Shown in pieces: positions 5,895 to 62,629 of a DNA stretch of 64,000 bases. Below the pieces are notes generated by a model. It saw nothing but the letters and a program-made list of their open reading frames with translations, was not told the DNA's origin and did not search any database. This DNA is from Raja brachyura. Lineage: Eukaryota. The position numbers were made by a program, and so were the translations under genes. Location: the NCBI GenBank assembly GCA_963514005.1, contig OY740809.1, positions 17,298,001 to 17,362,000 on the forward strand, given 5' to 3'. Position 1 is the first letter of the stretch. Each line of letters begins with the position of its first letter.

Positions 5895-6049
5895 TGATTC
5901 AACCGAGTTTATCCACAAAGCATATCTTAGTTAGCAGAAGTTTGTTTGGATAACCTTCATACAGCAGTCTGTTGAAGTACAGGGGTGAAATTGCAAGGCA
6001 CATTAACAGCGTTTTTGTTAAAGTATTTAACTTCTTCAATGGCAGGCAA
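5895..6049 (-). pseudogene. Possible CATSPERE-like pseudo-exon
   Basis: Flanked by tag| and |gtatgt; NTLTKTLLMCL ~ GYCTKTLTLTF; in-frame stop. Confidence 0.35.
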
Positions 6050-6397
6050 CTAGTTTAAAAATGTCTGCGCACATGTACACTTTGAAAAGACACCCAGGAG
6101 GGCTCAACCAATAAGGCAATATTGGTAGAGCTCAGGAATAAAAAAAGGTGCGATTACCACAATGGGTTTATTCCCTAGTCCAGCGTTTCTCAACCTTTTC
6201 ACCCTTGCGGAACGCTTGAAATAATTTTCATGTCTCAAGGAACCCCTCGCGTCACATGGTGATCTCTGGCATCACAAAGGGGACCCGTCGGTCGCGCCTG
6301 CGCAGTTGGGGTTGGATTGCCGGTCCAGGATTGCTATTTTAACATCCAGCATCATGTATAGGTGAGTGCACTGGGGGAATATTGCGTTGGTCTAGTT

Positions 6398-7684
6398 CAG
6401 GGGTGTCCAACTCATTATAGGTCATGAGCCGGATTGGGCAAAATGCGAATTAATGCGGGCTGGATCAGTTGTGCACGCGCGAATGCACGCTCCCACAGCT
6501 TTCGTTGCTTTTGTTTTTTTAAACGTGCTCTCGTGTGTCTCAATCTCTGCTATCACTACAACGTTTTTCACTTTACAAATTTTGTTTCTTCTGGAAAAAG
6601 ATTGCCTAGCAAGCATTACTTTTATGAATTGTTTTTTAAATTGTATTTATTTATTTATTTATTTTTAGTATCTTTATTTATTAGCGGTACTGTAAGTTAC
6701 ATCAGTGTACATCCCTTGTATTGTATTACAGTCATTATACACCTTAATTATTATTTTTTTTAATTTTAAGGCTTTAGAAAAGAGAGAATAGAGAGAAAAA
6801 TAGCAGCATAGAAAGTAGAAAAGTGAAAAGGAGATGTGAAAGTGCCAAAGCATGACAGAGGGAAAGGAAACCCTTGAAGAGTTAGAAATGGGAATTAAGA
6901 GATAGACCCTGGAGAGGAAAAAAAAAGAAAGAGGGAAAAATAGAAAAAGAAAAAAGAAAAGCCAGTTACTTTATTATAAACATCTCGCAAAAGAAATCTA
7001 CCAACTCGACAATTTTTCTTACCCCTTTACCAAGACCCGTCACCGGTACTTTTTTGAAGTATTCTTGCACCTTATCCTGGTAATAGATTTATAAATGCAG
7101 ACCACGTCTTATAGAAACAGTCTGATTTTCCTGCTAGTCGGAGTCTCATATCTTCCAAGTGTAGTGTTTCGAACATAGATGAAATCTACATATTGACTGT
7201 GGGTACCGGATAATTTTTCCAGAATTTTTTAAGATTAGCTTTTTTCCAGTTATTAAGCCATATTCAAATAGAGTCTTTTGAAACACGTTTAATTCAGGGC
7301 AGTCTTCCGATATCCCGAAGATTATCCAGGCTGCTTCTGGGGTCAGTTTTATTTCAAATATTTTTGCGAAAATTTCAAAAATTTCAGTCCAAAATTTTTG
7401 AATTTTTGTACAAAAGACAAATGAGTGTGGTATATTAGCTTCTTGACAGTGACATTTATCACATATAGGAGAGACATTGGGAAAAAGTTTACTTATTTTA
7501 GTTTTTGAATAGTATAATCAGTGTAAGATTTTAAATTGTATTAAGGTGTGTCTTATATTGATTGAACATTTATGCGCGTTTAATAAATATTCTTCCCACC
7601 TTTCTTTGGGAATTTTTATACTTAATTCTTTTTCCCAGTCTCTCCTGATACCACCTGTTGTTGGTATTTCTGCATTTAGAATAC

Positions 7685-7737
<53 letters not shown>

Positions 7738-9242
7738 ATTAGGTTTGCTGATTCTGCCTTTGTATTCATTACGTCTTCCAGTAAGTCTGGAGGCATATTG
7801 TGATAATCTTGTGCGTATTTTTTCAAATAGTCACAGATTTGGAAATATTTAAAATACTGATTGTTTCTCAAATTGGATTTTAGTTGTATTTGTTTAAATG
7901 ATAATAGTTTTCCCGATTCATACACATCTCTGAAGATTTTAATTCCAGTTCTTTCCCATCGTGTAAATGCTTTATCTATAGTTGAAGGTTTAAATGAGGG
8001 GTTTTTACTGATAGGAGATAAGAGAGATAAATTTCTTAATTTTAGATTGTGTTTTATTTGTTTCCAAATTCTGATTGTACTGTATATAATTGGATTATTG
8101 TTGTAATTTATATTATTCATCGATATTGAAGAGAGAAGGATTACTCCAATATTATAAGGAGAGCAATCCTCTCTCTCCATAATTGTCCAATCTGGTTGTA
8201 GGGGAGAGTTATCCAGCAATTGGATCATGTTTCTGATATATACAGACCAGTAGTAATACATAAAGTTGGGGAGTGCTAATCCCCCTACTATTTTGGGTTT
8301 ATTCCAAGTGTAGGCCACAAGAAAGTTGTGATGAAAGAGAGAAAAAAACAATGCTATTTTGGCTAAGGTTGTTTTGGGAGCCCCACCCTTTCCATTAATA
8401 AACCATTTGAAATCGAACTTTAGCAGACACAAATGTAGGTCTAACAAAACAAATTATGGTTTTGTTAGGTCTACTTCTCTGCCACCATTTTAGCGCTGGC
8501 ATCCAAGAGAGATTCCGGGTTGTGGCCTCTCCTGGTCAGTGCGGGTTTCTGGAACGGTCGGGAGACTGCGTAGGGCCTAGAACAGATGCTTTGCGGTCGG
8601 CTGAGCTCACTCCTCTGCCATACTACGCCACGCAGTGTAAAGAGAAAAGTATCCACAGCGCAGCCCGCACCGATACAATGTTGTTTTTTTATCCTCACAG
8701 CATTCGAACCCAGGGCCCAGCCGCTCCGCACCGCGCAACCTAACCCCACTCAGTGCTCACCCCCTCCCTCCTCATTGGCCGACTACCCAGAGGGTGGTCC
8801 CTTCTCCTATTGGGCCAGCCTGGTATCAGTCATGAGCCATTTAAAAATAAATTTAAAAAAAACTTTTTAAAAAAGACAATTTAAAAAAAACATTAAAAAA
8901 AAAGAAAATTAACAGAATTATAATTTATTGACATATTAATCATTAACAAAAAAATAGCAGAATTATGAATAATGGGTCTAACACTATGTCACACGCACAA
9001 ACTGTTCCCCCACAACACTGATTACACTGCGAGAGGGATTTACAAAGTTGGGTCGGGTTTACTGAAATGGCCGACGAAAAGGCTGATGTTCCGCTCCATA
9101 ACGTACTACACGTCTGCTCATTGGTTTTAGCAGGAGTGCTTGCTACAGGATCCTTGCCGGGGACAGCTACAGCCCGCTCTGGCATTGGGGAAATCCCGTG
9201 GGCCAGATTGGACCCCTTCGCGGGCCGGATTTGTCACCCCTG
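6398..9242. mobile_element. hAT non-autonomous element, inner element
   Basis: TIR caggggtgtccaa...ttgtcacccctg; perfect 8-bp TSD gtctagtt (6390-6397, 9243-9250). Confidence 0.9.
6625..8305 (-). mobile_element. L1-clade LINE ORF2 3' fragment with 3' UTR
   Basis: GGLALPNF..YYW...IQFKILH*LYYS...CDKC...HSFVFC.KI..FW (L1 CCHC region); in-frame (AT)n expansion at about 7688-7733. Confidence 0.9.
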
Positions 9243-13185: not shown

Positions 13186-13829
13186 GACATGAAAAATGAA
13201 AGCAGAAAATTATGAGAGACCTAGATTGGGTAGATAGTCAAAGTCTTTTTTTCCCCCCCCCCAGAGTGGAAATGTCACATATTGGAAGGCATGGCTTTAA
13301 GGTGAGATGGACAAGGTTTAAAGGGGATGTGTGCAGCATTTTTTTCTACAGAGTGTACAGGAATATGCTGCCAGGAAAGATAGACAAAAAAGCTGGAGTA
13401 ACTCAGCGGGTCAGACAGCATCTCTGGAAAAAAGGGATCAATTACATTTTGTGGTTTTGACTTGAAATGTCAACTATTCCTTTTCTCTGGAGATGCTGTC
13501 TGACCTGCTGAGTTACTCCAGCTTTTTATGTCTATGTTCAGTTTAAACCAGCAACTGCAGTTCCTTCCTACACATGCTGCCAGGGAAGCTGGTGGAAGCA
13601 GATACGATAGAAACATTTCAAGAGGCATTTAGATGTGTGCATGAACAGGCAGGGAATGGAGGGATACAGACAGTGTGCAGGCAGATGTGCAGTTTAAATT
13701 AGCACTATGGTCAGTACAGACAATGCGGCCCAAAGGGCCTATTCCTGTGCTGTAATGTTCTATGTTCTGTGTATGGTATTACTCAATCAGAAAGAAATGT
13801 GAATGTATTTTAATTTATAAAATAAATAT

Positions 13830-14045: not shown

Positions 14046-14340
14046 TTCAAGGCTGAATCAGCTCTTGACTGCTCACATGTAGAATGATGATGGATGAATT
14101 ATTAAGGTTTTCTACATGTATATTACTGTTGCTAAAATGGAAAATATGATCCAAGATACTAATATAAGCCAATTTTCTAAGATTCACCCATTCAATATCC
14201 AGCATGGCCCTGTAGATCATCAGTGGATTTTTTGATAAAATGACCAATGCAACTTCTCTAAGGTTAATGCAGTTGCATTAATATTATAATACATTATTTT
14301 ACATACTGGTAACATAGTGAAATATTCCATATTCTGAATT
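14046..14340 (-). pseudogene. CATSPERE-like pseudo-exon
   Basis: EYGIFHYVTSM*NNVL*Y / INATALTLEKLHW ~ YYGDILVKMENNVIFYSKINTRDAVKLHLW. The stops are single-base changes from GAA and TAY. Donor GAA|gtaaag. Confidence 0.65.
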
Positions 14341-14681
14341 TCTTCACCGGACCAAACTCATGATGGAGCAAGAGAGTTTTAAATAAATACAGTGGAATGG
14401 TGCCATTTATACAAGGAGATAATTGTTGACTTCAGGAAGGAAAGGCCGAGAGTCCATGAGCATGAGTTAATTGGTGGGAGAGTGGTGGAGAGAGGCAACA
14501 GGTTTAAGTGCCTGCGTTGTGTCTCTCTGAAGATCTATCCTGGGCCTAAACATTTTTTTAAAAGCTCATCGACACCTCTACTTGATTGAATTGTTTTTTT
14601 CCCAGTGAATGTGACAATAAAACACACTTGTTTAATTGTGAGAGTCTTGGACTGGAGGTCATAGCCTTAGAATTAAAGGAC

Positions 14682-17981: not shown

Positions 17982-18302
17982 TGTAAGTTAATGATTTCAG
18001 ATGAGATCCAGGAACAGAGCCAGGGAAGATTGTGTTTCCAAACAATTTAAAGACGATTCCTAAAGATTGGCAGAAAGATTGCTTTTCTGTAAGATTTCTT
18101 ACTTTCTTACTAAAGAAAGTAAGAAATACATAAATTTGTTCATCATCCCATAGCAATATATTTTGTTCAGAATGACTCCTTATCATAAAATAGTCTGTGT
18201 AGATTATTTCCTTGCCTTGAATTTTCAAATGATTTATGATGCTGAACCAGGCTTGTTCATTGTTTTAACTTGAAGATTGTGCTGCATCCAAAAGAGGAAT
18301 TG
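17982..18302 (-). pseudogene. CATSPERE-like pseudo-exon
   Basis: Acceptor tatttttgttcag|. After a frameshift: NNEQAWFS...SHSEQNILLWDDEQIYV...LGIVFKLFGNTIFPGSVPGSHLKSL ~ NEDTKQWVS...SALPGLLLWNKHSIYY...TGILQTPAGHGNLSMLSNDSIIHEV. Confidence 0.65.
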
Positions 18303-19401
18303 CTGAACAAAAATAATTAATTTATCTCATTCAATGGTTATTTTAGAATCTAGGCTGGTCTGTTTAACCCCCAATTCCATATATTTGGTAAATCCAATAC
18401 TCCTTTTGCATGTGAGCAATGAATTGATTAAATTCCTTTTGTTGAAATTAGGATTGAATTATTGTCGTACGGTTTCTTTTACATCTAGCTCTAGATTTTG
18501 TTCAAAAATATTAAGTGGATGATTATGAATCAATAATCATTTTATCTTGCAATCAATAATAATCAATCCATGAGTACAGGCTCAGAGTTGTCAAACGCTC
18601 ATCATACGTTAACCCAATCATCCACAGGATAATTCTCATAAACCTCCACAGGACCATCTCCAACACTCACTCAACCCTCCTCAGATATGGGGTCCAAAAC
18701 TGCTCACAAACAACCCTTCTGCAAAACATTATGGTGTGAAATAGAAATATATGCTGCCTGGTATAAATGTGCAGTAGCAGCTCAGGCCAGTTTTTGCCAG
18801 CACATCAATTGTATCATGCTCGAAGAGACCATAAGTTAGATACCTAGAGATCAGGCTTTTCAAACAGTTGTTGTTTTAGAAATTGGAAGTAAACATCATA
18901 TGCAGGGCACAACAAAAATATTTCAATAGACAAGTGAGCAATGCTTATGTATTGTGCACAAGAGATCTACAGTTATGTTGAGAGCCTCATGGGAATAAAT
19001 GTGTTCTTCCATGCACTGCATATAATATGGAACCTTGCATATATAATGCAGGAACCTTGTATTTTGTCCCCATAGTTGGTTCCTCTACTCAGCTCTATGT
19101 TCTTGGTGGCCAGGCATCCATCTGTCCTACCTTGATTTCCACCGCCTTAAAATCAACAACACAATCTGGTATTGTCAGTCTGAAACCAAGCTTGAGAGTG
19201 GCATGTAAATGGGTTCAAGATCACAAAAGTTAGTTTATCTCCTGCAATGGATTGGACAATCTATTGCCAATAGTTAATATCCACCTTTATTCCAAGAATG
19301 AACGCCTATAACACCAGCCACTGATAATACTAGACCGATAATGCAGTAAATTTAGGGAGGAATATGAAAATTAAAACAACATAGAACAGCAACAAACATA
19401 C

Positions 19402-22049: not shown

Positions 22050-22600
22050 CCTTTCACCCACTTTCAAATCATATATTACCTGCAGTATTGGTACTGAATG
22101 TATAATTTGTGTACAAACCTGGACCAGCTGGAGGCATGACATTCCGTGGCTTTTTATTTCTTTTTTAAAGCTTAAACTTAAGAAAAACATATAGCTTACA
22201 TAATATTTATTATTGAAAACGAGCATGGCATTTTCTTCTGTCCTCCATTCACAACAACATTTCTACAGCAACTGCACAGTCGTTTATGATCCCCGACATT
22301 GAAAACATGATATTCACGCCTTAGTGGCATCAAGCTTTTTACATCCCTGGTTTCCTTTGTGACATCCATCTCCATTAATAAGCTGCAAAGTAGGAGGTTC
22401 TGTGATCTAGTCCAGACATGCATCTGTGTGAATAGTAGTAAGCAGGCAGAGAACATTTTTGCTGCAATCTAAACCAACTGCTAATCCCCTTGTCACAGAA
22501 ACATGCAGCATAGAAGGGGGCTCTGGCATATTGTGCTGGCATCAGCATGTTGAGGAAGCCATGCAATTGGTGCCACTTCCCTGTTCATTCCCGTTATCAA
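22050..22600 (-). pseudogene. CATSPERE-like large pseudo-exon
   Basis: HGFLNMLMP...FYAAC ~ PGYLPISSP...SWDAC; VWTR/ITEPPTL ~ SWTRIRVPPDIL; LINGDGCHKGNQGCKKL ~ LINGVLYIKSFRGFIRL. Frameshifts, stops and an internal deletion; boundaries approximate. Confidence 0.65.
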
Positions 22601-24670: not shown

Positions 24671-26446
24671 GGTTACTCCAGCATTTTGTGCCTACCTTTG
24701 GTAATGAATTTGCTCTGTAAAAGTTTAAATTTAACAGCTTAAGTTTTATCATACAAACCAACTACCAGGAAGTGCAATGGGTCATGATGGCTAATGATTA
24801 TGTTGGAGTTTTATCCAATATTCTATTTTTGATATTAAGTACAACATTGTAAAAGCTGTGCAAGTTTTGGAATGCCAAATTTGGAATTGTTTTGATGGGA
24901 AAAGTGAGAACAATGAAGACACAGGAATGGAGACTCCCTTTTAACCCAGATCTATCATGGTTATAGGAGTTTCAATTTTAGTTCATGGAACCACCAAATT
25001 ACTTTGGGTTGTGAAGCCACAACTTGCCCACCAAGAATGACTGGTGGTCTTAATGCCAAAACCAGAGATTAAAATGTGCCAAATTTCTAAATGGAACTAT
25101 GCTCCCCTAGAACCGAGTAAAATGAAATGAGGGATAGGTGTCTGATGTGCTTTCAGAAAGTTAATTGGTTGGTTAAATATTGCAATAAGGCCGTCCGTCC
25201 GCCTTCCCTTTACCAGTTATTCTATTTTAAAATCACAGGTAGAAAGTTTCAAATGCTGAGGAAACTTAGCAGATTCCAAAGTTCCAAAGACGTACAGGTT
25301 TGTATTTGGCTTGATATAAGCGTAAATTGTCCCTAATATGTGTAGGGTAATGTCAATGTGCGGGGATTACTGGTCGGTGCGGACTCGGTGGGCCGAAGGG
25401 CCTGTTTCCGCGCTGTATCTCTAAACTAAACCAAAGTAGTTCAGGGAGGCTAATTAGGTGCATGATGCTGAGAAAGTAATAGACAGTTTCTCCATGACCA
25501 ACAATCTACACAGTAAATCGATCTATTACCCCATGATCTGTCTGCTTCCGTCTTTCTGTAAGATGTCCCCCTAAACCCCAGCCGCTTTTCTAAACCATCA
25601 GTTGTGACACTCTGACAGTCAACCTGCATGCCCAGCCACAAGAGGACACCCACCAACCAGCACTCCCCGCACTACCTCAACCCCCCATTACATAACGCCC
25701 ATTGAACAAATGAGAAAGTTTCCCTGCAATGGGGACCTCAACCAGTAGTCCGATAGACGCCCAACCACTCAGACATAAATTCAGCCCATTATCCATTCAG
25801 ATGTTTCCGACAGTTTAACCCATCCATAATCCAGACTCCATGTTCCATTCCTTGCAATCTATCCCCCAATTTCTCCCATCTGTTGAATCTCACAGACTTT
25901 GCTATTGTGAAGCAAGCTTCCCGTCTGATATGCTCCGGATTGCCAATCCTACTGCCTGTGGGTGAGAATACAACTAAAATAAAACAATCAAGTAGCTGTT
26001 CAAAAAAATGCCCCTGGAGAATTGAGTACCCAACTTACAACAGCAACTGCATACCTCAAGGTATTTATCCTCATGCTAAAATCTGGATCATTAACCAGCA
26101 GCCAAACAATTAATTCGAGCCAAAGATTTTCTTGCGGAACTTCAATTCTGGGATTTCAATTCTCTACTTACCTGCCCATTTTCTGTTGAGCATGAGACGT
26201 GATAATAATTCTTAGAGAATCTCTGGAAGAGAATTAGATGTGCCTAAGATTGTACTGACTGCTACAAAATGCAAATACCTGCATCTAATAATTGGTAACC
26301 ACTGGTATCAAAGTTAAAATATATCCCAAGGCCGTCACAGGAAGTCTTCACAAAATTTGGTATCAACCTATATGTGGAAACATTGGATCAGATGATCAAG
26401 ATCTTGGCTAAAGGAGGAAGGGAACATTTAACGAGGAAATTTGAGA

Positions 26447-33000: not shown

Positions 33001-36000
33001 TCAAAGTTAGGGTACTAAAACAGAGCCAAACATGCCGACAGTTGAGTCTCCACCTAAACCTGTTACATCTGTTATTGTTAGACGATCAGGCAGGATCCGT
33101 AAACCAGTAGTCAGGTTAGGTTTGTAAGTTAAATAAATCATTGCACAAGTAAAACAAAAATGTGTAGATATGTAAAATAAATATATTATGCTGACCGGAG
33201 GGAATAGACCCCACCGGGGCTGGCATGGGCTAGCTCCTCATGCCAGCAGGATCCATCGCTTATCAGCGTTTTGGATCCACCCACATATTGCTACTAAAAA
33301 GACAAAACAAAGAATACCCCTTGATTCTGCGAGAGCGGGGTCGGAAGATGACTCATCGACAGACCACACGGCAACAGACCTAGGAACGGAATCGACTATG
33401 AGTATTACTAGCACAGCAATTGACAAAGCAGCAGCACCGGCAGGACATAAGTTACGAAGTTGTATCTGTGGCTTGGAAAAGTTAATATCAGAGAAGGGTC
33501 TCATGATCCATTAGGGCAGGAAAAAGTGCCTGAGAGAGCTTGGTGTGGGGCCTCGCATTGACCATTACTTTCTAAAAGGTAGACCAAATCAGTCGAGTGA
33601 AGCCCAGTGGCAGGATAACCACCACAGTCCACAGGGTATCACCACCCCAGGCGAAGCTCAACTAGGTACAGTGCCACCAATGGACACGAGTCCAGAGCCC
33701 AACCAGCCACAGTCAGCGGTAGAAAGAAAAATGGAAGGGAAAAAGCCTCAAATCTTGTGGCCTAAATCCTGCCAGAGGAAAGAGTGGGAGACCGTTAACG
33801 CTGACCTCATCCATCTTCTGGAAGGATTGAAGGGATGTGTGGAAAGAAAACTGGAGAAGATGGGAGACACCATATACAACTATGGGGCGGAGAGATTTGG
33901 GGTGAAGGTCGTGAAACAGAGGACACAGACGGAACCAGCTCTCCAGTACAAGTCCAGGAGGCAGCAGGAGATCAAAAGACTGGTGAAAGAAAGGAGGCAG
34001 CTGAGAAAACAGTGGAGGAAGGTTACAGAGGCAGAAAGGAAAGGATTTGAGGCACTGCAGGCAGAAATAAAGCAGCGCCTGGCAATCCTGCGAAGAGCAG
34101 AATGCCTGAGAAAGCAACACAAGAAGAATGAACGGGTGCGGACAAGTTTCCACAGAGATCCGTATAAGTTTGTCAAAAGCCTCTTTGTCAAGGAGAAGAA
34201 CGGGATCCTGAGAGTACCTGTAAGGGAACTGGAGGAGCGCCTGAGGAAGACGTACTCTGACAACCTGAGGCATGAGGCAGTCACCATTCCAGATGACATG
34301 CCACCTATCCACCCACCTGAGCACCAGATGTACATAAGGCCTCTTATATGGAAGGAGGTGGAGAACACAGTCAAACGGGCAAGAACAGCATCGGCCCCAG
34401 GGCCCAATGGCATTCCATACAGGCTCTATAAGAACACCCCTGGTGCCCTGAAATACCTTTGGAAGTTAATGAAAGTGGCATGGGGAAAAGGAATCATACC
34501 TAAGGCATGGCGAAGGGCAGGTGGGATCTTAATTCCCAAAGAAAAGAACTCCTCAACCATTAGCCAATTCTGCCAGATCAGCCTTCTGAACGTGGAAGGA
34601 AAGATCTTCTTTGGTGGTATGGACCAAAGACTCTCAACATTTTTGCAGAGCAACAACTTCATTGACACGTCAGTGCAGAAAGCAGGGGTACGTGGTTTCT
34701 CAGGATGTCTGGAACATGCAAACATCATCTGGCACCAGATACAAACTGTCAAGAAGGAAAAGAGAGATCTGCATGTGGTTTTCTTAGATCTAGCCAATGC
34801 CTTTGGTTCAGTGCCCCATGAGACTCTTTGGGCAGCTTTTAATTTCTTCCAGGTCCCAGAGGTCATCACAAAGCTGGTAAAAGCTTACTTCCAGGACCTC
34901 CAGTTCTGCGTCACAACACAGGACAACACCACCACCTGGCAGCACCTTGAGGTAGGCATAATGGCAGGCTGTACCATTTCTCCTCAGGTTTTCACCATGG
35001 CAATGGAGCTCATCATTCGAGCATCATGATGGGTGGTCGGATGGGAACGCTTGAAGAGTGGGCTGCGTCTTCCACCAATCAGGGTGTACATGGATGACAT
35101 GACCACAATAACAACAACAAAAGTATGCACCAAACGCCTGCTGGATAAACTCCAGGAAAACATCAAATGGGCACGAATGGAGATTAAACCCAGCAAATCC
35201 TGCAGTGTTTCCATCGTCAAAGGCCGGCTCACTGACGAAAGGTTCCGTATCAATAACGAGACAATACCAACTGTCCTGGAGAAGCCTGTCAAATGCCTCG
35301 GGCGATGGTACACGGCATACCTCAATGATGCAGTGCAGGTGGAACAACTCAGGCAGGATACAATCAGTGGCCTCAAGCAAATCAACAATACTGCTCTCCA
35401 GGGAAGCTGAAGCTTTGGTGCCTGCAATTCGATCTACTGCCCCGACTCATGTGGCCAATTACCATCCACGAGGTCACTTTATCCCATGCCAACCAGCTGG
35501 AGAGACTAGTGAACTCACAAGTGAGGAAGTGGCTTGAGCTACCGAGATGTCTCAGCAGCATAGGGCTCTATGGGAATGGAGCCCTCTCACTGCCAATCTC
35601 AAGCTTAGTGGAGGAGTACAAATGTGCCAAAGTGAGGCTGGACATGACACTAACAGAATCCCGGGACCCAATAATAAGAGGTGTCGCTCCAACCCTAGCA
35701 ACAGGGAGGAAATGGACTCCAGCAGCAGTGGTACTGGACGCAAAATCCGCCCTCCAACACCGGGACATAGTGGGCCATGTCCAACAAGGCCGAGGGGGCT
35801 TTGGCCTGGGAGCAATGAAACCTACCTGGCAAAAGGCTACTCCAGCTGAACATCGCCACCTGGTGGTGGAGGAGGTGCGCCACCAGGAAGAAGCAGCCAG
35901 GTGTGCCAAAGCCATATCCCAAGCCAAACAAGGCCACTGGATGACGTGGGATGGCGTTGAGAGGAGGAAGATCACATGGAGAGAGCTGTGGACCATGGAG

Positions 36001-37114
36001 TCAAATAAGTTGAGCTTCATTATCAGAGCCACATATGACGTCCTTCCCTCTCCCACAAACCTAAATCTTTGGCTGGGAGAGGATCCAGCCTCCCCGTGTG
36101 CAGTTCCAGCAAACCTCAAGCACATCCTGGTCGGTTGTAAGACCAGCCTAACACAAGGCAGATACACCTGGCGACACAACCAGGTGCTGAGGTGTTTGGC
36201 AGCTGAACTCGAGTGCAAGAGAGTTACCACCAACGCCATGCCTATCAATGCCCAGATACCATTCCTGCAAATACCATCCTTCATCCGGGAAGGAGAGAAA
36301 TGGAGGACTAACCTCTCGCCTCTCAACTCATGCCCACTGAACGCAGCCAGGGACTGGGAAATGCGTGTTGACCTAGGCCAGAGGCTTTCGTTCCCAGTTG
36401 AAATCGCAGTTACCAACCTGCGACCAGACCTCGTTCTCTGGTCCAACTCCTGTCGGCGTGTTTTCATCATTGAGCTGACGGTCCCATGAGAGGAGGCTGT
36501 GGACGAGGCTTATGAAAGGAAAAAGCTTCGATATTCAAACCTTGCAGCAGAGGCAGAGGAGAGAGGTTGGAGGGTAAGGTTGTGACCATTGGAGGTGGGG
36601 TGCAGGGACTTTGTAGCCAGTTCCACCGCAAGGCTCCTGAGGGAAGTAGGAGTCAAAGGGTAGGCACAAAGGAGGGCATAAAAGAACTTGCCAATGCCGC
36701 TGAACGGAGCAGTCACTGGCTGTGGCTGAAGAGGAAAGATGCTGTCTGGGCTGCCACGTGACCATCTAGAGGCTAGCAATAAGACACACACCCAGGTCTG
36801 ATCAACCTGCGGTGGGCCTGCCTCGACTGAGGGTGTCCTGTGATAAAAGTGTCTTGTGATATTCATACATATTCATGTACATGTTAATGGGGTGGGAGAT
36901 TGCATCCTTCACGTGGTCCGCCCTGTTTCAACGAATGCAATCAACCCGGCGTGCACAATCAAATAAGATCAAATAGAACAAGTTGTCCTACAACTTTAGG
37001 CTGTGCACACCATACGCAAGACGAAGCAGGGAATGTTGGGTAATAAATCTCTCTCTCGTTATCCAGGCAACCAGCGTGTAAGTTGTTATTCATTGTGCCA
37101 TCCGGAATATAACA
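30087..37114 (+). mobile_element. Gypsy LTR retrotransposon, degenerate, RT deleted (LTRs 30087-30230 and 36855-37114)
   Basis: PBS tggcgacgagg at 30235; gag knuckles CYRC...H....C and CYNCQKKGH; protease IDMAAD; RNase H LACDASSYGVGA; integrase HVDF / SDNGPQF / SN.AAER. A ~130-bp short insertion sits in the 3' LTR. Confidence 0.9.
33186..36850 (+). mobile_element. Near full-length HERO-type (R2 group, RLE) non-LTR retrotransposon
   Basis: Single ORF with few lesions: N-terminal CICG...GL.IH.G.KKC finger; RT FLDLANAFGSVPH and YMDD; CCHC L.HIL.GC; RLE RPDLVLWS...IIELTVP*E. Confidence 0.9.
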
Positions 37115-43806: not shown

Positions 43807-44953
43807 TACAGTGGCTTGCAAAAGTTTTCATACCCCTTGAACTTTTACACATTTTGTCACGTTAAAACCACAAACGTAAATGTATTTTATTGGGATTTTA
43901 TGTGATAGACCAACACAAAGTGGCGCATAATTGTGAAGTGGAAGGAAAATGATACATGGTTTTCAAATTGTTTTACAAATAAAAAACTGAAAAGTGTGGC
44001 GTGCAAAAGGATTCAGCCCCATTTACTCTGATGTCCCTAAGTAAAATCCAGTGCAACCAATTGCCTTCAGAAGTCACCTAATTAGTAAATAGAGTCCACT
44101 TGTGCGTAATCTAATCTCAGTATAAATACAGCTGTTCTGTGAAGGCCTCAGAGGTTTGTTAGAGAACATTAGTGAACAAACAGCATCATGAAGCCCAAGG
44201 AACACACCAGACAGGTCAGGGATAAAGTTGTGGAGAAGTTGAAAGCAGGGTTAGGTTATAAAAAAATATCCCAAGCTTTGAACATCTCATGGAGCACTGT
44301 TCAATCCATCATCCGAAAATGGAAAGAGTAAGGCACAACTGCAAACCTACCAAGACATGGCCGCCAACCTAAACGGACAGGCCGGGCAAGGAGAGCATTG
44401 ATCAGAGAAGCAGCCAAGAGGCCCATGGTAACTCTGGAGGAACTGCAGAGATCCACAGCTCAGGTGGGAGAATCTGTCCACAGGACAACTATTAGTAGTG
44501 CACTCCACAAATTGGGCCTTTATGGAAGAGTGGCAAGAAGAAAGCCATTGTTGAAACAAAGCCATAAGAAGTCCCATTTGCAGTTTGCCACAAGCCATGT
44601 GGGGGGGACAGCAAACATGTGGAGGAAGGTGCTCTGGTCTGATGAGACCAAAATTGAAGTTTTTGGCCTAAATGCAAAACGCTATGTGTGGCGGAAAACT
44701 AACATTGCACATCACCCTGAACACACCATCCCCACTGTGAAACATGGTGGTGGCAACATCATGCTGTGGGGATGCTTTTCTTCAGCAGGGACAGGGAAGC
44801 TGGTCAGAGTTGATGGGAAGATGGATGGAGCCAAATACAGGGCAATCTTGGAAGAAAACCTGTTAGAGTCTGCAAATGATTTGAGACTGGGGCGGAGGTT
44901 CACCTTCCAGCAGGACAACGACCCTAAACATACAGCCAGAGCTACATAGGAAT

Positions 44954-47004
44954 CAGGCACGTGCCGTCAGGGTAGGCAAGGTAGGCACTGCCTACCCTGA
45001 CTAAAATTATGAAATGGCAATTTTTAAATATAAATAGTAAAGGCATGGGAGAATTATGCCTGTCTAAGAGATCGATCTCTTAGGTAGGCATAATTCTCCG
45101 TGCCTTTCACCCGCAGCGCTTGTAACACGGGAAGCTCTGTGCAGCCCCCGTGCCGTCAACGCTGCCTGAGCCGTCAGATTCAATGGAAGCTGAAGGCAGC
45201 AGAAATTCTGCCTTTGCAGCACTGCGCATGCGCATCATCTTTCTGCGCATGCGCATCGCGAGTTTCTTGGCGGGATGTTCAAATATGGATTGCCATTATT
45301 TTAATAGTATCTTAGCAAACAAATGGAGAATGGACTTAATGTAACAATAATGTGGTAAGTGCATTTCTTTGTGCTTTATGTTTTTAAATACTGTAGTTCC
45401 CGGGGTGGGGGGAGAGCTCCGTTCACAGTGTTTGGGCAGTCTGGCGTTGTGAAGGAGGGGATTGGGGTCAGTAACCCACTTGCCACGCTCCGGTCTGAGT
45501 GCAGGTGAGATGGGACTAGGTGAGAGTAAGTGTTCGGCACGGACTAAAAGGGCCGAGATGGCCTGTTCCCGTGCTGTATTGCCATATGGTTTTATTGTGG
45601 CCGGGGAGTGGATCAGCTCGGGTGGTAGCCGCAGCACTCCGGGCGCGGAAAGCAGAACTGGCCGCCACTTCCGCGGAAGGAAGCAGCTCGGGTGACTGCG
45701 AGTGGCCGCCGGCACCCTGCCACTTCAGCCCCTTCTGCTGGTCCCCACTCACCTCTGGCAGTGCTCTCCGTCTGAACATCTCTCACCTGCCGCTCGCCGG
45801 CCGGCTTCCCGCAAATCTTTAAATTCCGACAGCGCGTTCACGGATCCAGTTTAGGTTACTTGGCTGTGGGAATTTAAGGATTTGCGGGGTGCGGTTGACA
45901 TGAGCGAAGGGCAGGTGAGAGATGTTCAGACGGCGAAGGAGATAGGCGACGTTTCGGGTCAAGACCCTTCTTCAGACTGAGTCTGAACATCTCTCACCTG
46001 CCGCTCGCCGGCCGGCTTCCCGCAAATCTTTAAATTCTGACTCAGTCTGAAGAAGGGTCTCGACCCGAAACGTCGCCTATCTCCTTCGCCCCTTAGATGC
46101 TGCTGCACCCGCTGAGTTTCTCCAGCTTTTTGTGTAACCCCCATCTCTCACCTGCCGTTCGCCGGCTTCGCTCATGTCAACCGCGCCCCGCAAATCCTTA
46201 AATTCCCACAGCCAAGTAACCTAAACTGGACCCGTGAACGCGCTGTCGGAATTTAAAGATTTGCGGGAAGCCGGCCGGCGAGCGGCAGGTGAGAGATGTT
46301 CAGACTCAGTCTGAAGAAGGGTCTCGACCCGAAACGTCGCCTATCTCCTTCGCCCCTTAGATGCTGCTGCACCCGCTGAGTTTCTCCAGCTTTTTGTGTA
46401 ACCCTCGATTCTCCAGCATCTGCAGTTCCTTCTTTAACACGGCAGGTGAGAGATGTTCAGACAAAGAGCACTGCCAGAGGTGATCAGAAGGCGCTGAAGA
46501 GCAGCCAGTTCTGGTGTTGGGTCCCGGTGGCCGTTCGCACCCGAGCTGCTTCTATCCCCGGAAGTGGCGGCCAGCTCTGCTGTCCTTGCCCGGAGCGCTG
46601 CGGCAGCGGTGAGTGAGTTTGATATGATCTCTGTCCCCCTCCTTCTCAAAACCTCTCCCTTCTCGCATACTTAACCCCTGCCGCAGGCTCCCCACACGGT
46701 GTGAAAGGAACTCCCCCTCCAATTGGACCCTTGAATTAGTATTGTCATTCCATATGATGACAACTGATTCAACGTCCCGATGTGCTCCCATTTTTCCCAC
46801 CATCTCTCCACCTGCCTTCATCCTCCGTCCCCCACCCATTCAGTAATTAAAAAATGAAGGAGATTTAGAACCCTTGGGGAAATTGAATTGTCACTTATTT
46901 TTTATTGTTTACGAAGAGAACAATCTGCGCATGCGCGGTTTTAAGATTTCTTTTGAAAGCCGGCTGACTGCCTACCCTGAGTAATTACTCACGGCACGTG
47001 CCTG
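44954..47004. mobile_element. Non-autonomous hAT element with internal palindrome
   Basis: 14-bp TIR caggcacgtgccgt; perfect 8-bp TSD ataggaat (44946-44953, 47005-47012). Confidence 0.92.
46047..46074 (+). ncRNA. Minimal type I hammerhead ribozyme motif in a Penelope terminal repeat (second copy 46311-46338)
   Basis: CTGAAGA-A-GGGTC-TC-GACCC-GAAAC-GTC: core, perfect stem II and self-complementary ACGT in place of stem III. Stem I is weak in this copy. Confidence 0.55.
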
Positions 47005-50000
47005 ATAGGAATGGTTTAGATCAAAGCATATTCATGTGTTAGAATAGCCCAGTCAAAATCCAGACCTAAATCCAATTGAGAATCTCTGGCAAGACTTGAA
47101 AATTGCTGTTCACAGACGCTCTCCATCCAATCTGACTGAGCTTGAGCTATTTTGCAAAGAAGAATGGGCACAAATTTCAGTCTCTAGATGTGAAAAGATG
47201 GTAGAGACATACCCCAAAAGACTTGCAGCTGTAATTGCAGCGAAAGGTGGTTCTACAAAGTATTCTCAGGGGGGCTGAATACGTTTGCACGCCACACTTT
47301 TCAGTTTTTTATTTGTAATAAAATTTGGAACCCATGTATCATTTTCTTTCTACTTCACAATTATGCACCACTTTGTGTTGGTCTATCACATAAACTTGGT
47401 CATGGAGCACCACAGATTATTTTCACGTAACCAGAAGTAAGATGAACCAGTCGAATCCAACACCAGTTCCCCGAAGAACATAGCTGGCAGGTGCCAGTTC
47501 AGTGATCTACGCGACAACCTCATCCATAGCAGACCCGTGTACGGCATACTGAATGACAAGGTGAGAGATGAGTTACTCCGGGACGAGGAGCTCACTCTAG
47601 TTAATGCTTAGCGCTCCTGTCAGGTTGCTGAGCTAACCAACACCCATACCAAGTCTCTAGGACCCGGACCCCACTCCGCATATAGTGTCAACGCGTTCTA
47701 CAGATTTCTGCGCCAAGTAAAGCTACCACCAAAATCATTAATAACTGCTCCAATTGTGGTGGCTCGCATACAGGGGGATCCGTGAAACGTGCCCCACTTT
47801 CGGGAGAAGTTGCCATTATTGTAAAAGGAAAAAAAACTTTATTCGTTGCTGCCGCTCTCGTGGGAACACAGTCGAGACAAACCAACCTCTCCACTTTCTT
47901 CAGCCTACACTTTCCAACGAGGACCTAGAGGACATTCCCACACCTGCAGAAGCAGAATTGCTTGAGCACCAAGCTGCCAGCTTCAGCATACATTCCTTGT
48001 CAGATCCGTCATGCAAGCACAAGGATCCTATAACAACGCTTCAGATCACCAATGCCAAGGTTATTGCAAAAATCAACACCGGGGCTCGCTGTAATGTTTT
48101 GCCCTTATCGGATTTCAAGAGAGTTTGAAAATTCAAAGTTGTTAGAAAAACCAGTGCCAAATTACTCCCATTTGGGTTAGGAGAGGTCCACCCGGTCGGA
48201 AGAGAGGAACTGTACTGCCATCTGGCTTCGGTTGTTTACAACCTCGACTTTTTCATTGTCCGTGGGAACATAGCCCCTCTGCTGGGTATCGATGCATGCC
48301 ATGACCTGGGTTTGGTCACCTTCGGCCAAACTGTACACCAGCTCACCCTCACCCCCAGCCTGCTCAACAGTTCCTCTCACAGTACAAAGACCACTTAGCA
48401 AACTTCCCCACATGTACACCATTGTAACTGACCCAGAGGTCACGCCAGTTGTCTGCACCCCTCACCAGATCCCGCTTGCTATGCGAGACCACGTTCAGAA
48501 CGAACTTAACAGGATGGAAACTCTGGGTGTGATTGCCCATGTCAGCGATCCATCTGCCTGGGTCTTGAACATGGTTGCATCAACCGAGAAAAACAAAGAT
48601 GAAATACAAATTTGCATCAATCCCAAGGATTTAAACACTGCCATTAAATGCCCACACCACCCGATGCAAACGGTGGAAGAAATCGCGGCCAACCTGGGAA
48701 CAGTAACAGTATGCTCAGTCCTGGACGCAAATAACTCATTCTGGCAGATTCCACTAGACCATGAATCCTCCATGTTGACCACGTTCGGCACACCTTTCGG
48801 ACGTTACAGATTTTTACGCATGTCATATGAAATAAACTCGGTTAGTGAGGTTTTTCAATGCACCACGGAGTAGTTATTTGCTGGATACCCATGTGCATTC
48901 ATGGTAGATGACATTCTAGTTGCTGGACAAAATGTTCCGGGTCAATTAAGTGAACTATGTGGGTCATGTATTCACCAATAAAGGTCTCAAACCAGACCCC
49001 TTGAAAACCATTGCCATCAATGAGCAGCCAGTGCCCACGGATGTGACCGCATTACAACGGTTTATTGGCATGGTAAACTACTTGGGAAAGGTCATCCCAA
49101 ACTTCAGCGAATTCTCAGCCACACTAAGGCAACTGACTCACAAAGAAACAGACTGGTCCTGGCACGACCACCAGCAGAGGGCGTTTGACACTCTTAAGCA
49201 GCAGATGTCCTATGCTCCAACACTCGCTTACTTCGATGCCAAGCTGCCTGTCACTTTAACTTGCAATGCCTCGCAATACGGACTGGGATCAGCCTGTCTC
49301 CAGAATAATGGTAGAGGCCACAGACCCATTGCCTCTGCCTCCTGCACCATGACTGACACAGAACAGTGCTACGCACAGATCGAGGAGGAACTGCTAGCTG
49401 TGGTCTTTTCCTGCAGGAAATTCAATGACTTGATTTTCAGCAACACTGTCAGTGTTGAACTGACCACCAGCCACTGGTCAGCATTCTGAACAAGCCGATA
49501 CACGCCACCTGTGTGCCTTCAACGTATGATGATGGTATTACAAAGGTACGACATTAGACTGGTTTACAAATGCGGAAAGGAAATGCACTTAGCTACGCGC
49601 AACACCTGCCAGAAACACCTGTCGGACAATGATGGTTTTATTGTTAAGATGGACTCCTACCTCCCATCCTCGTGTCTAGACGATCTGGCAGCACAAACAG
49701 CTGCAGACGACACTATACAGTCACTCTCCTCTGTCATCCGACACGGATGGCCAGACAAGCAATACATGCTACCGCCCTTGATTTGCCCAATTTACCCTGT
49801 TCGTGATGAACTGGTACTTCAGGATGGCATTGTGGTGACAGGACACAAGGCAGTTGTTCCTGCATCTCTGCAAAACAAGTATTACGATGCCATCCACAGG
49901 GGTCATCCCAATGTGGAGGCAACGGTTCTGAGGGCAAAGAGTATGTTCTTCTGGCCTGGAATGTCCGACTTTGTGCGTGAGAAAGTTGATTCCAGTGCGG

Positions 50001-51728
50001 TGTACAACAGCCTAGTGTCGCACCAACCCAAACAGCCCCTTCTCTCGCACCCCACACCTGACTTGCCATGGTCCACAGTTGCAATTGATCGACTTACTCC
50101 GCAGTCCAACCTCAGCCATGGTTGTTGAAAAGCAGGCACGCCACTTTCCTGTCCACGGGTCTCCCATTCATCTTCTCTCTGTCAATGGCAGCCAATTCAC
50201 CAGTCAGCATTTCAAGAACTTCATTAAACGCTGGGATTTTCGCCGCATCACCAGCAGCCCCGAGAACCCGCAGTCCAATGGGTTTACAGACCGTGCGGTG
50301 AGAAGTGCCAAACAAGTGATGGAACGGTCCCATCAGGCCTGTTCTTACGTCTATCTCAACGTACTCAATTTACGGAACATTTCTCGTGATCCGATTCTGG
50401 TTTCTCCTGCCTAGCACCGTATGTCAAGGCAGACTCGCACTATGCTACCTATAGCAAAGCAGATGTTGCAACCACAAATTCGTGCCCCGGTGGTGATCCA
50501 GGCAAAACTACAACAGCGACGCGATACCCAGAAACAATACTATGACAATTCAAGCACACCGCTTCCGCCTCTGACCAAGGGACAGGTTGTCCGCTTGCAA
50601 ACGGCAAAAGGCTACGACCAGCTGGGCGTCAGTCAAGGCACTGCTCCTGCGCCTCGCTCTTACCTGGTCAGTGTTGATGATGCCACCTTCAGACGTACCT
50701 GACAACACCTTCGCCCCATCAATGAGCCAGTGCCGCCTCGACACCATCCTGACTACACAGCTGTGTCTCCCTCACAGTCCAACGATTCCAGTCCCATGGT
50801 CCCACATCTGCCTGCTGACCCCAGTCCAGATGCTTTGCCTGCTGCTTCGCCTCCCCGACCGCTACCGCGGTGTCCATCCTCACCCTCAACACCGTTCAGA
50901 CCTGCGGTATCACTCCCTTCTCCTACTCAATCTCCGGTGAAGGGAGTAAACGGTGGATACTGTATGCACGCAGGTCGCGTCTGCAGGCCGAATCCAAAGT
51001 ACCTTTGAACTGTCTGTGAACTGTTTTCTCACTTGCTGCTCTCAGCACACAGTCCATGAAGTAAAGTGCACTCTCCTCATATTTAAGAAGGAACTGCAGA
51101 TGCTGGAAAAATCGAACGTAGACAAAAATGCTGGAGATGCTGGGTTTCTCCAGCATTTGTGTCCACCTCCCTCATATTGGTGTTTTTCTATCTACTCCAC
51201 TATAAGCTTGTTTAATTATAATTTGTTCTTTAATTGTTATATGGTTATATGGTTATAAGAGTCCAACCCCTGTCCCACAGTGCGAGTCCACCCACGAGTT
51301 ATCCCGACTTAAAACCAAATCACACTCATGTTAATCACGTAGTATGAACGTAGCGGGAACATCGGAGCTTGTGGACGTAACTTAGCGACTCTTAACGCTA
51401 ACGGCAGTTACACGGGAAACGTGTTTACTCGTGAAAAATTTTCAACATGTTGAAAGATTTTCATGAGTCAAATATACTTTTGAAGGAAAATATTGATACT
51501 TTTAAACTCGTTGTAAATCCGTAGTAGCCCATGAGTTTACCATATTAACTCATGGGTTTGGCCTGAGTGCCAGAAGTGACATGTTGAAGATTAGTCAGAT
51601 CTTAATGGAAAATGTTACAGTGAGCTAACAATTCATTTTCAGTGAGTAATGCCTTTCAATGTTTTATGCCAGACCTTGAACAATTGCAGTTCAAATGGAC
51701 ACCCGTGCCTTAGTACAGCATAGCTTTT

Positions 51729-52439: not shown

Positions 52440-52720
52440 AATTTGAAGGAAGGAATTGCAGATAGTAGTTTAAACCAAAGATATACACAAAATGATGGAC
52501 TAACTCAGCTGGTCAGGCAGCATCTCTGGAGAAAAGAAATAGGTGATGTTTCAGGTCGAGATCGTTCTTCAGGCTGGGTCTTAGCCTGGAAAAGGGTCCC
52601 GTCCCGAAACGTCGCCTACTCCTTTTCTCAAGAGATGTTGCCTGGCCCGTGGAGTTACTCAAGCATTTTGTGTCTGTCTTTGGTTTAAACTAGCATCTGC
52701 AATTCCTTCCTTCCAAACTT
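52440..52720. repeat. Palindromic pair of Penelope terminal repeats (similar ones near 1200-1385, 11925-12080, 13373-13572, 51085-51165, 53015-53180)
   Basis: gaaggaattgcagat...cagcatctctggag mirrored by gagatgttgcct...catctgcaattccttc. Confidence 0.8.
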
Positions 52721-57070: not shown

Positions 57071-57174
57071 CTCCTATCGGATTCCTGTTCTGTAAAATGT
57101 AGGCTCAAATTACATAGAGTTTAGCCACAGAACAGCATGAATAAGTTCTAAAAATTCAAACAACCTGACAATAC

Positions 57175-57849
57175 CTGGGTTCCTGTATCTTGTCCAACAC
57201 ACAAGTAAGGATGCTTTGGAGTTGATTGAAGCAATGCCCTTGCTGAAGAATTCATTCTTTGATATCTGTTTGTAAAATCAAGATAAGATGGCCCTGCCAT
57301 GTGAACAGATTGGATGGCAATCTTGTTGGTTAAGTCCATGGCTTCCTCTGAACTCTCTTTGGACCAGAAGGTTGGATGTGATGTTGCTGCTTTAGCTGCA
57401 GGGTCCATGTGTAAATGTGGAATGTAGTCCGGAGAACTCGGCTCAAAAGACAGCTGGCCACAACTGAAATGCTGTCCACATATCCGAGAGTACATTGTTG
57501 GTGTCCAGCCATTTCTGGTAAGCTGGATAGCTTTTGTTATGGCTGCAGTGTGACTTCCTTTCTTCCTTATGACGGTGAACCACCGAATGTGGGTATCCTT
57601 GCCTCGACGACTTCGGCATCCAGCGACACTGCAGCAGTCTCCGTGGCTGTTTGAACGTGAAGTGGGTTTCTGAATAATTACAGATTTTGGATCAATTCCA
57701 AGCCATTGACAAAGAACTCTTTGGAAGTACACTCTCGTTCCTGAAATTGGAAGCCCATATTGCTTACAGAGCTCTCGAAGTTTGGCTTTTGGGCCTTCCC
57801 TTATCTGCTGTATGATTAATGATATTTCCTCTGCATTTATATTATCCAT
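57175..57849 (-). CDS. Intact coding exon for a SAP-domain + THAP (C2CH) zinc-finger protein
   Basis: 225 uninterrupted codons from ATG 57849 to a phase-0 donor (CAG|gtattg, exon end 57175). Acceptor ctttgtttttcag| lies 9 nt upstream (exon start 57858), with an in-frame TAA before the ATG. SAP-like KLRELCKQYGLPISGTR..F..VL; THAP CSVAGC...W.P...RICGQHF...PDYIPHL. Confidence 0.85.
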
Positions 57850-57939
57850 TGTTTAATACTGAAAAACAAAGCATCAGCACAATTAATAAATTCTTCATTA
57901 CCAACATCCTGTTATGCAGTGATCATGATCCAGTCTGTC

Positions 57940-58330: not shown

Positions 58331-58344
58331 TTATTCAGGGTATC

Positions 58345-59060: not shown

Positions 59061-59300
59061 CGTTAAGATATGAAAGAAAGTACCGTAGAATTATTGACAA
59101 CAATTACTAGTTTCAAGGGAATTGGCGGGGCTGAAAGTTCACATTCATTCATGTATAATAAGGGTGGATATGAACGTGTGCCAGGGCCAGTTGGAGAACG
59201 TAGAATGGGGAATATCACAGGAGCAGTAATCAATAAATTATCCAAAATAGTGACATGCTATAACATGCTCCTCCCAAGTGCTGTGATTTTTTTTGTTTAA
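59061..59300 (-). pseudogene. CATSPERE-like pseudo-exon
   Basis: TWEEHVIAC...PILRSPTGPGTRSYPPLL...VIVVNNSTVLSF vs EWSVPETC...TELRCSSPGVHAIKPIV...LFVESSHTCF. Strong donor ACG|gtaagc. Confidence 0.55.
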
Positions 59301-59549
59301 TCCTGATCTCCAGTGCTTTCTGTCTGAAGTCTTCACATTTCTCTGTGACCACATGGCTTTCCCCTGAGGCCTTACAATTTCCTACTCCGGTTTCATACTT
59401 TAATGATGTTTCTGTAAATTGCCATTGTGTTGGTATGTGGTAGAATCAGAGAGGGAAGTGTTGATAGGTAGATGGGGAGAAAAACATTTGATTAGTGTAA
59501 ATGGGGGGGGAGAGAAGGTGCTCCTTCTCTCTCCCCCCCCCCCCCCCCG

Positions 59550-60872
59550 CGGATTGGAGGGTAGCTAATGATATCCCACTTTTTAAGAAAGGTGGGAGAG
59601 AGAAAACAGGGAATAATAGACCAGTTAAATTGACATCAGTGGTGGGGAAGACGCTGGAGTCAATTATTAAAGATGAAATAGCGGCACATTTGGATAGCAG
59701 CAACAGGATTGGTCCTAGTTAGCATGGAGTTGCGAAGTGGAAATCATGCTTGACTAATTTTCTGGAATATTTTGAGGATGTAACTAGGAAAATGGACAAG
59801 GGAGAGCCAGTGGATGTAGTGTACCTGGACTTTCAGAAATACTTTTTAGAGCACATGATATTGGAGGTAGGCAGGCAGTGACTAGTGGGGTACCGTAAAG
59901 CTCGGTGCTTGGACCGCAGCTATTTACAATTAATGATTTAGATAAAGGGATTAAAAGTAACATTAGCAAGTTTGCAGATGACACAAAGCTGGGTGGCAGT
60001 GTAAACTGTTATGCTAAGAGGATGCAGGGTGACTTGGACAGGTTGGGTGAGTGGGCAGATGCATGGCAGATGCAGTTTACTGTGGATACATGTGAAGTTA
60101 TCCATTTTGGTGGCAAAAACTTTGGTGTCAAGTTGCGAAAAGGGAAAGTACAATGAGATCTGGGGGTCCTTGTTCATCAGTCACTGAAAGTAAACATGCA
60201 GGTACAGCAGGCAGTGAAGAAAGCAAATGGCATGTTGGCCTTCATAACAAGAGGAGTTGAGTATAGGAGCAAAGGGGTCCTTCTGCAGTTGTACAGGGCC
60301 CTAGTGAAACCACACCTGAAGTATTGTGTGCAGTTTTGGGCTCCAAATTTGAGGACGGACGTTCTTGTTATTGACGGAGTACAGCGTAGGTTTACGAGGT
60401 TAATTCCCGGGATGGCGGGACTATCATATGTTGAAAGAATGGAGCGACTGGGCTTGTATGCATTGGAATTTAGAAGAATGAGAGGAGATCTTATTAAAAC
60501 ATATATGATTATTAACGGATTGGACACACTAGAGGCAGGAAATGTACTCAATGTTGGGGGAGTCCAGAACCAAGGGCCACAGTTTAAGAATATGGTGTAG
60601 GCTATTTAGAATGTAGATGAGGAGGTTAGAACTTTTTCACCCAAAAGGTTGTGAATCTGTGGAATCCTCTGCCTCAGAAGGCAGTGGAGGCCAATTATCT
60701 GGATGCTTTCAAGGGAGAGTTAAGTAGAGCTCTTAAAGATATCGGAGACAATGGATATGGGGAAAAGACAGGAACAGGGTACTGATCGTGGATGATCAGC
60801 CATGATCACAGTGAATGGCTGTGCTGGCTGAAAGGGCTGAATGGCCTACACCTGCAACCATTGTCTATTGTC
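59550..60872 (+). mobile_element. CR1 RT to 3' end fragment (additional CR1 tail at 58750-58980)
   Basis: DWRVAN..PLFKKG...N.RPV.LTSVVGK; KFADDTKLGG; LV.PHL.YCVQFWAP. Confidence 0.92.
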
Positions 60873-61329
60873 CTTGTTGCACCCCTCTGACTCCACTGCT
60901 GGAACTCCCACTCGTTTTCTGGACTTGCTGCCAATCCCAAATGGACAGAAGGCTCCTGGTGTGATCCATCACGAATGGGAACTTTGCAGATTCAGTTGAA
61001 TCACATTTGGATTCAGGGTTGCATTAATGGGGCAGGAGCCCTGATCAAATCAATCAATTCAAAAAGCAAATACCAACAGAATCAAGTTCTATAAAAGAGT
61101 CAAATTCCTTCAGCATATTATACAACTCTCTGTACAAGTTCTATAAAAGAGTCAAATTCCTTCAGCATATTTTTACCACAGTCACATTTCCAAGTAGCAA
61201 ATTTTACAACTTAAAAATGGACATATTACATTGTACTAAAAATGTTCCTCAGAGAACCAAAACTCTTAGTAACCCTAAAATTATTGAGAAAGAGGTAATG
61301 TCAAATCAAAGCTTTGAATCCAAGGAACC

Positions 61330-62460
61330 ACAGAATTATTGTGCACATACATTATGCCCATTGCGTGTATGCTATCTCCTAACAACATATTCAATCTCAC
61401 TCACGCCTATGTGGCCAAATTCTGCACTAACTCAATTAACAAGTTTGCAGATGACATCACTGTAAGGTTCCGGTTTAGGTTTATTTTGGTCACTTGTATC
61501 AAAGCTTTGTTTTGCATGCTGTCCAAGTGGATCAGATAATAATAATAAATAAATACAATCAAGACAAACTCAATTGCAATGGGTAGAGCAAAGGGGAAAA
61601 TACAGAATGCAAAATATAATTCTCAGCATTAAAGTGCATCAGTTCCACTGGCAAAGTCCAATGTCTGCAATGGGGTAGAGGTGAATTAGCCAGAAGGACT
61701 ATTCAGAAGCCGTTCTGAAGTATGTGCACTTTCAAGCTTCTATACTTTTTTGCCAAGGAGAAGGAGGAATGATTATGGTGGAACAAGTCTTTGATTATGT
61801 TGGTTGTTTTTCCGAGGCAACTTGAAGTGTGGATGGAGTCAATGGTGGTGTGCCTGGTCTGTGTGATCAACTGTGTAGGAAAGAACTGCAGAGCTGGCTT
61901 AAATTGAAGGTAGACTCAGAATGCTGGAGTAATTCGGCTGGATAGGCAGCATCTCTGGAGAGAAGGAATTGGTGACGTTTCAGTCTGAAGAAAGACCAGA
62001 GCTATTGTGAATAATAGGATTCTAACATAGGAGTCCTGTTGTCTTGGTGTTCAAGAAATGAGTTTAGGGCCAGGGAGATTGTGTCTGCTGTGGACCTTTT
62101 GCAATGGCAAGCAAACTGCAGTGGATTCGGACCAACTGGGAGGCTGGAGTTAATGTGCACCATCACCAGTCTCTTGAAGCACTTCGTGATGGTGGCTCTT
62201 GAACCCGCTGGACATAATGGGCTGGATCTCAATCAATGACAAGACAGAGCACAGGAAAAAGATGGAGCACTTGGTAGCAATGATGCTACCTCTTCCTCTA
62301 AGAGCTATGGACTTGGACCCCAAGATCTCTCTGTACATTAATACTGTTGAGTGTCTTGCAATTCACTATATACAGTACATTCCCCTCACACTAGAAGCAC
62401 AAGTGTCTACTTTCCCCTCACACTTAAAGTGTCCTTCCAAAGTGCAACTCCTCACACTTG
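61330..62460. mobile_element. Mosaic of old Rex-Babar, Penelope and CR1 fragments
   Basis: KFADD at 61441; KCFKRLVM...PLQFA on the minus strand at 62030-62200; Penelope terminal repeat at 61875-62000. Confidence 0.55.
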
Positions 62461-62513
62461 ACAAAACAGGTAAAAGTGCAAGCTGAGAGTAGGTGAAGAT
62501 TGTTAATATTTAC

Positions 62514-62629
62514 CATGTGAATTCATGAAAACTATTTATTGGACGAACAAATTTACAGCATCAACCTGTGACTTGAGATCTCAATGTAAACCACGTCAGG
62601 CAGGGTTTCAGGAGATTCGGTCTGACCAT
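62514..62629 (-). pseudogene. Possible first coding exon remnant of the CATSPERE-like pseudogene
   Basis: Reads MVRPNLLKPCLTWFTLRSQVTG*CCKFVRPINSFHEFT, signal-peptide-like with an in-frame stop, followed by donor TG|gtaaat. Similarity is weak. Confidence 0.3.

Follow-up and report, generated by a model that had tools for sequence, protein, structure and literature searches.

Does the minus strand of this locus hold the remains of a CATSPERE gene, and with them the trace of a lost sperm calcium channel? CATSPER-epsilon (C1orf101) is a canopy subunit of the CatSper channel (PMC5362262, PMC12851028) and is required for hyperactivation in mice (PMC12851028). The preliminary description had proposed a fossil CATSPERE-like gene of about 11 collinear islands with stops and frameshifts, representing either a gene loss or a decayed duplicate. 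We examined the window, i.e. the whole 64-kb stretch of DNA that was analysed.

Sequence context of the window

The window is non-coding, transposon-invaded vertebrate DNA without a working gene. Its GC content ranges from 35 to 59% (2 kb bins), and an assembly gap of 157 N is located at 3152-3308. A crude mask made of self-similar repeats and hand-drawn transposon blocks covered ~54–57% of the window, and the unmasked sequence used for the null tests amounted to 25,410 bases. Pfam confirmed reverse transcriptase, RNase H, integrase, Tc1, and DDE domains, and the families above the cut-off in 381 queries on the window were transposon-associated domains only. Weak Pfam matches to DHHC, adipogenin, and DUF918 were below the cut-off and were dismissed. 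Rfam and tRNA scans of the window gave no RNA family and no tRNA. Exon prediction with rough splice matrices returned 22 minus-strand and 27 plus-strand candidates, nearly all within transposons, and a clean open exon chain was absent from both strands. Neither exon prediction nor Pfam analysis of the window indicated an intact multi-exon host gene competing for the region, and no host gene flanking the islands, for use in synteny (the preliminary description had named ADSS2/DESI2), is present inside the 64-kb window.

The main transposon-related features are included in Table 1. The C-terminal motif of the near-intact retrotransposon is presumably of the restriction-like endonuclease type. 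The SAP and THAP ORF is 86% identical over 226 aa to an uncharacterized protein of Narcine bancroftii (one match among 88 candidates), and the match stops at residue 225 of 298. No other protein of the window has a named relative, and this one comes from an electric ray; a single transposon-like ORF thereby points to a cartilaginous fish, probably a ray, rather than to a particular species.

Other features were also observed. Long imperfect palindromes at 3880-4583, 45770-46305, 52442-52716, and 13377-13538 belong to a common repeat family and are MITE-like or inverted SINE pairs. A weak ND5/MrpA-type antiporter match at 59264-59440 on the plus strand (Pfam E 4e-4, below the cut-off; PDB E 0.12) is either due to chance or a very old mitochondrial insertion. 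A 51-nt segment on the minus strand (26172-26222) with a perfect donor, a good acceptor, and two open frames may represent a small exon, either real or fossil.

Candidate islands

The motifs quoted in the preliminary description (M*NNVL*Y, WTR/ITEPP, LING, and ILLWDDEQIY) were all located on the minus strand as claimed, and the repeat mask places them in non-repeat DNA between transposons. The stops and a frameshift in the islands were also seen, and no ORF spans them. Stops and frameshifts are typical of any non-coding DNA, so the disabling lesions are present but do not discriminate. The number of islands was reproduced in part. Because WTR/ITEPP and LING are only 10 bases apart, the quoted motifs amount to three islands (at 22.4, 18.15, and 14.3 kb), and the eleven were not recovered. 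Both ends of the proposed range (5895 and 62629) correspond to two further candidates at 5.9 and 62.6 kb. The candidates at 19.2 and 5.1 kb, together with weaker ones, came from expectation-guided reading of the unique minus-strand translations. The credible core is the cluster from 22.4 to 14.0 kb, and the outer islands are weak.

Table 1 Candidate islands and transposon-related features in the window.
Feature	Position	Strand	Observations	Searches without a match
Best-supported island	22323..22442	-	WTR (22414-22406), one-base frameshift, ITEPP (22406-22392, another frame), LING (22382-22371), then G....K......KLD; fit of mouse CatSper-epsilon peptide	Pfam, PDB
Candidate pseudo-exon	18103..18302	-	200 nt; AG to GTAAGA donor; one in-frame stop; ILLWDDEQIY (18159-18130); splice pair P 0.07; hand score vs herring epsilon ~28, chance range	PDB, Pfam, protein collections
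Candidate pseudo-exon	14050..14346	-	M*NNVL*Y (14304-14281), then 76-codon open stretch; herring epsilon hand score ~19	Pfam, PDB, protein representatives (phmmer), ESM Atlas
Candidate pseudo-exon, low end	5867..5968	-	K...AN in register with epsilon/delta C-terminal domain, by eye vs herring epsilon and delta; chance expectation of K...AN-type pattern 2.4 per strand; weak acceptor at 5968	Pfam, PDB
Candidate pseudo-exon, high end	62514..62653	-	By eye; resemblance requires two frameshifts in 60 bases; splice pair P 0.43	Pfam, PDB
Added candidate	19131..19241	-	111 nt; fair splice sites; FxTDN in expected order; P 0.04, chosen post hoc; stops in 3/3 frames	
Added candidate, beyond the range of the preliminary description	5090..5175	-	FxVxxxDPxH, C-terminal-domain-like; herring epsilon hand score ~25	Pfam
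Non-LTR retrotransposon, near-intact	33176..36489	+	Between islands; RVT_1 E 3.8e-12; long ORFs	
SAP + THAP ORF, probably transposon-derived	57148..57852	-	234 codons, open; Pfam THAP E 4.6e-4 and SAP E 7.4e-4, both below curated cut-off	
LTR-retrotransposon pol remnants, two	30600-32600 and 47700-50500	+	Pfam	
Tc1-like transposase	43897-45000	+	Pfam	

Comparison with published epsilon sequences

The antigen peptide of the mouse epsilon antibody m-epsilon-331, whose sequence is printed in PMC12851028, was placed ungapped on the LING island at 22376-22323, the island to which it would be expected to correspond. Four of 18 residues are identical, and 13/18 codons are at most one base away. The minimum number of base changes (19) is tied for the best; 14 of 127,460 sites equal it and none is better, corresponding to a site fraction of 1.1e-4, or 1.5e-3 when both anchor codons are left out. 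The site is weaker when scored with BLOSUM62 (P 0.003; 0.03 without the anchors). The fit was spotted by eye before being tested; with a correction for register choice (the island offers an estimated few hundred), p is ~0.002–0.04. At several mismatched positions, a single base change would restore the mouse residue, a pattern such as neutral decay gives. The LING site had been picked in the preliminary description without the mouse peptide.

Herring beta, gamma, delta, and epsilon sequences are printed in Dataset S3 of PMC7533707. Hand scores of the islands against this herring epsilon sequence were 13–28, no higher than chance gives. Outside the anchor residues, no excess fit to it was seen by hand for the islands at 18.15 and 14.3 kb. 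When compared by eye with the four herring subunits, the C-terminal candidates at 5.9 and 5.1 kb fit epsilon or delta alike, as follows from the C-terminal domain that delta and epsilon share (PMC5362262). This shared domain is the point in favour of decayed exons of another gene, CATSPERD or CATSPERG included. We consider such an origin highly improbable, the least probable of the readings, as the sole quantitative support comes from an epsilon peptide and the domains above the Pfam cut-off are transposon-associated only.

In the unique DNA of the minus strand, six short patterns from published epsilon sequences follow one another as in the protein (22373, 19185, 18156, 14304, 5947, and 5137). 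Five are the sole unique minus-strand match and one has a second, out-of-order match, and on the plus strand 2/6 patterns occur in unique DNA; the six were picked post hoc, and their chance presence per strand is 0.04–0.88 each. We take the motifs of the preliminary description to resemble segments of human epsilon in the same order. The best-conserved C-terminal motifs gave no clear by-eye match in the unique minus-strand translations, and no signal-peptide or transmembrane exon was found in the window.

Chance tests on the motif set

A chance resemblance would mean that the unique stretches are ordinary AT-rich intronic or intergenic DNA and that by-eye matching paired short motifs with a long protein in which the same residues abound. 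As a null, random unrelated 950-aa proteins were compared with the 25,410 unmasked bases by ungapped matching in 12 trials. The mean match counts were 765, 138, and 6 at scores of at least 25, 30, and 40, respectively, and the longest collinear chain at a score of at least 30 had 11–17 matches (12/12 trials). Since random proteins give equally long chains of similar strength on the minus strand, collinearity alone is no evidence and was dropped. The quoted motifs are short, with best possible scores of only 20–56 (BLOSUM62, perfect match), and WTR and NNVL recur in the six frames of the window (17 and 3 occurrences, respectively). Best-frame stop density equals the background in 7/7 candidate islands (P 0.27–0.98), and splice signals at six anchors defined in the preliminary description are not above those at random unique sites (P 0.07–0.68). 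Stop density and splice strength, both at background, were likewise dropped as evidence. For the islands as a set, an excess over chance is not demonstrable and the signal is near the chance level.

In addition to these results, alternative by-eye matches in all three frames at 5.9 kb and the emptiness of every database search with respect to CatSper (see below) favour chance. It is opposed by the fit of the mouse peptide to a site named without that peptide and, post hoc, by the ordered single pattern occurrences on one strand. We regard chance resemblance as a substantial possibility that falls somewhat short of being probable; in that case, the window is ordinary DNA.

Database searches and their power

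CatSper families were hit by 0/381 Pfam queries, which consisted of 21 + 30 targeted pieces, 30 long ORFs, and 300 of the 405 stop-free ORFs of at least 36 aa in unmasked DNA (150/207 on the minus strand and 150/198 on the plus strand). The Pfam copy searched presumably includes CATSPERE models. A CatSper chain was returned from the PDB for 0/6 in-frame island queries. A phmmer search with the 139-residue 14 kb island against 1.84e9 representatives gave no matches, and word searches with the 18 kb ORF (33 candidates) and with four pooled islands (398 candidates) found no CatSper. The best score in the ESM Atlas, queried with one natural ORF from the 14 kb island, was 0.75 for a hypothetical protein. 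In total, neither the PDB nor the large protein collections yielded a named CATSPERE orthologue with significant similarity. The protein collection includes ray proteins, as seen from the Narcine bancroftii match.

The power of the phmmer search was simulated with substitution-only, indel-free decay. Recovery was 30/30 for 50% identity over 75 aa, 80% over 45 aa, and 35% over 110 aa, and 1/30 for 40% identity over 45 residues. Epsilon identity between human and mouse is 50% (PMC5362262). Because of the simulated recoveries and the fast evolution of epsilon, the empty searches carry little power for short frameshifted pieces. A close intact relative is excluded, provided that the library represents one. 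The empty searches are compatible with an old relic that carries frameshifts and derives from a fast-evolving gene.

CatSper in cartilaginous fish

CatSper losses have been numerous, but cartilaginous fish are near-complete retainers of the channel according to the available sections of a study that surveyed 271 fish genomes (Rafati et al. 2020, PMC7533707). CatSperE was scored as present in 8/8 cartilaginous fish, two batoids included, with electric ray and stingray not among them, while the pseudogenes scored were CatSper3 and CatSperB of the little skate and CatSper2 of the bamboo shark. A little skate CatSper2 sequence is given in Table S1 of PMC2572835. In the OrthoDB source data of PMC12638846, epsilon is present in 6/7 of the cartilaginous rows listed, thorny skate included. 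White shark is blank among these rows, yet its CatSperE is present according to PMC7533707. Narcine, Torpedo, Hypanus, and Mobula have no row among those listed. The available parts of PMC11289002, PMC13674862, PMC10760960, and bioRxiv 2026.04.08.717291 contain nothing on the CatSper status of cartilaginous fish.

Both presence counts, together with the 157-N assembly gap in the window, speak for a CATSPERE gene that still works or broke only recently, its lesions being due to errors in the assembly or to recent mutation. Several results are against it. In the simulation, homologues with 50% identity over 75 aa or 80% over 45 aa were always recovered, yet the phmmer search itself came back empty. 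Assembly errors are not dense, as a transposon ORF in the window runs through 504 codons without interruption, and a clean open exon chain is lacking. We judge this reading to be very improbable, and a recent loss or an assembly error was rejected on the simulated search power. An annotated skate epsilon is available, so for a window of skate origin the lack of matches speaks against a recent loss. With an electric ray as the source, all observations are in keeping with an old loss.

Interpretation of the locus

The proposed assignment to CATSPERE thus gained one modest support, the mouse peptide at the LING island, and no database confirmation. The identity is unproven, and decayed CATSPERE-like exons are the most likely reading of the unique minus-strand stretches, one that we hold to be slightly on the probable side. 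We infer the CATSPERE ancestry from one peptide test and the motif order; the motifs, the stops, the frameshift, and the transposons are directly seen, as is the lack of an intact gene. A real gene here would be an ancient relic, rather than a recent loss or an assembly error.

The history of such a relic may be outlined as follows. A CATSPERE-like gene would have stopped working long ago, and substitutions, indels, and stops would then have gathered in its exons at the neutral rate. Its splice sites would have eroded, its introns would have been filled by retroelements and DNA transposons, and the remnant would make no protein. Between the loss of a sole copy and a dead duplicate, we lean in our judgement towards the sole copy.

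A further step would be an ancient loss of CATSPERE, and with it of the CatSper channel, in an old lineage of rays (possibly the electric rays); the islands would then be what is left of the gene, a fossil of 57 kb. We consider this doubtful on the DNA evidence at hand. If true, cartilaginous fish, which fertilise internally and are thought to retain CatSper, would have their first case of a lost sperm calcium channel. The literature searched on CatSper in cartilaginous fish, skates, sharks, and batoids and on Narcine gene loss reported no such ray loss. The CatSper partners include sNHE and sAC (PMC6660944). A dated ray loss would be a natural test of which fertilisation modes manage without CatSper and of whether sNHE and sAC also go.

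Comparison with CATSPER-epsilon and known CatSper fossils

The window resembles CATSPER-epsilon in the order of short motifs and in the fit of one mouse peptide at the DNA level. It differs from CATSPER-epsilon in having no ORF, no signal-peptide or transmembrane exon, and no profile match. Fossils of CatSper genes have been described in other vertebrates. CatSperE pseudogenes were reported in several teleosts (Rafati et al. 2020, PMC7533707), and degenerate CatSper-beta and CatSper3 fragments are present in bird genomes (Cai and Clapham 2008, PMC2572835). The bird fragments, as described in the available text, are placed by synteny and show clear similarity (66 aa), whereas the islands in the window have no flanking gene and no significant alignment. 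In both cases, short translated CatSper-like remnants lie in non-coding DNA, those of the window being candidates. Fossil CatSper genes are already known as a kind, and it is the lineage that would be new.
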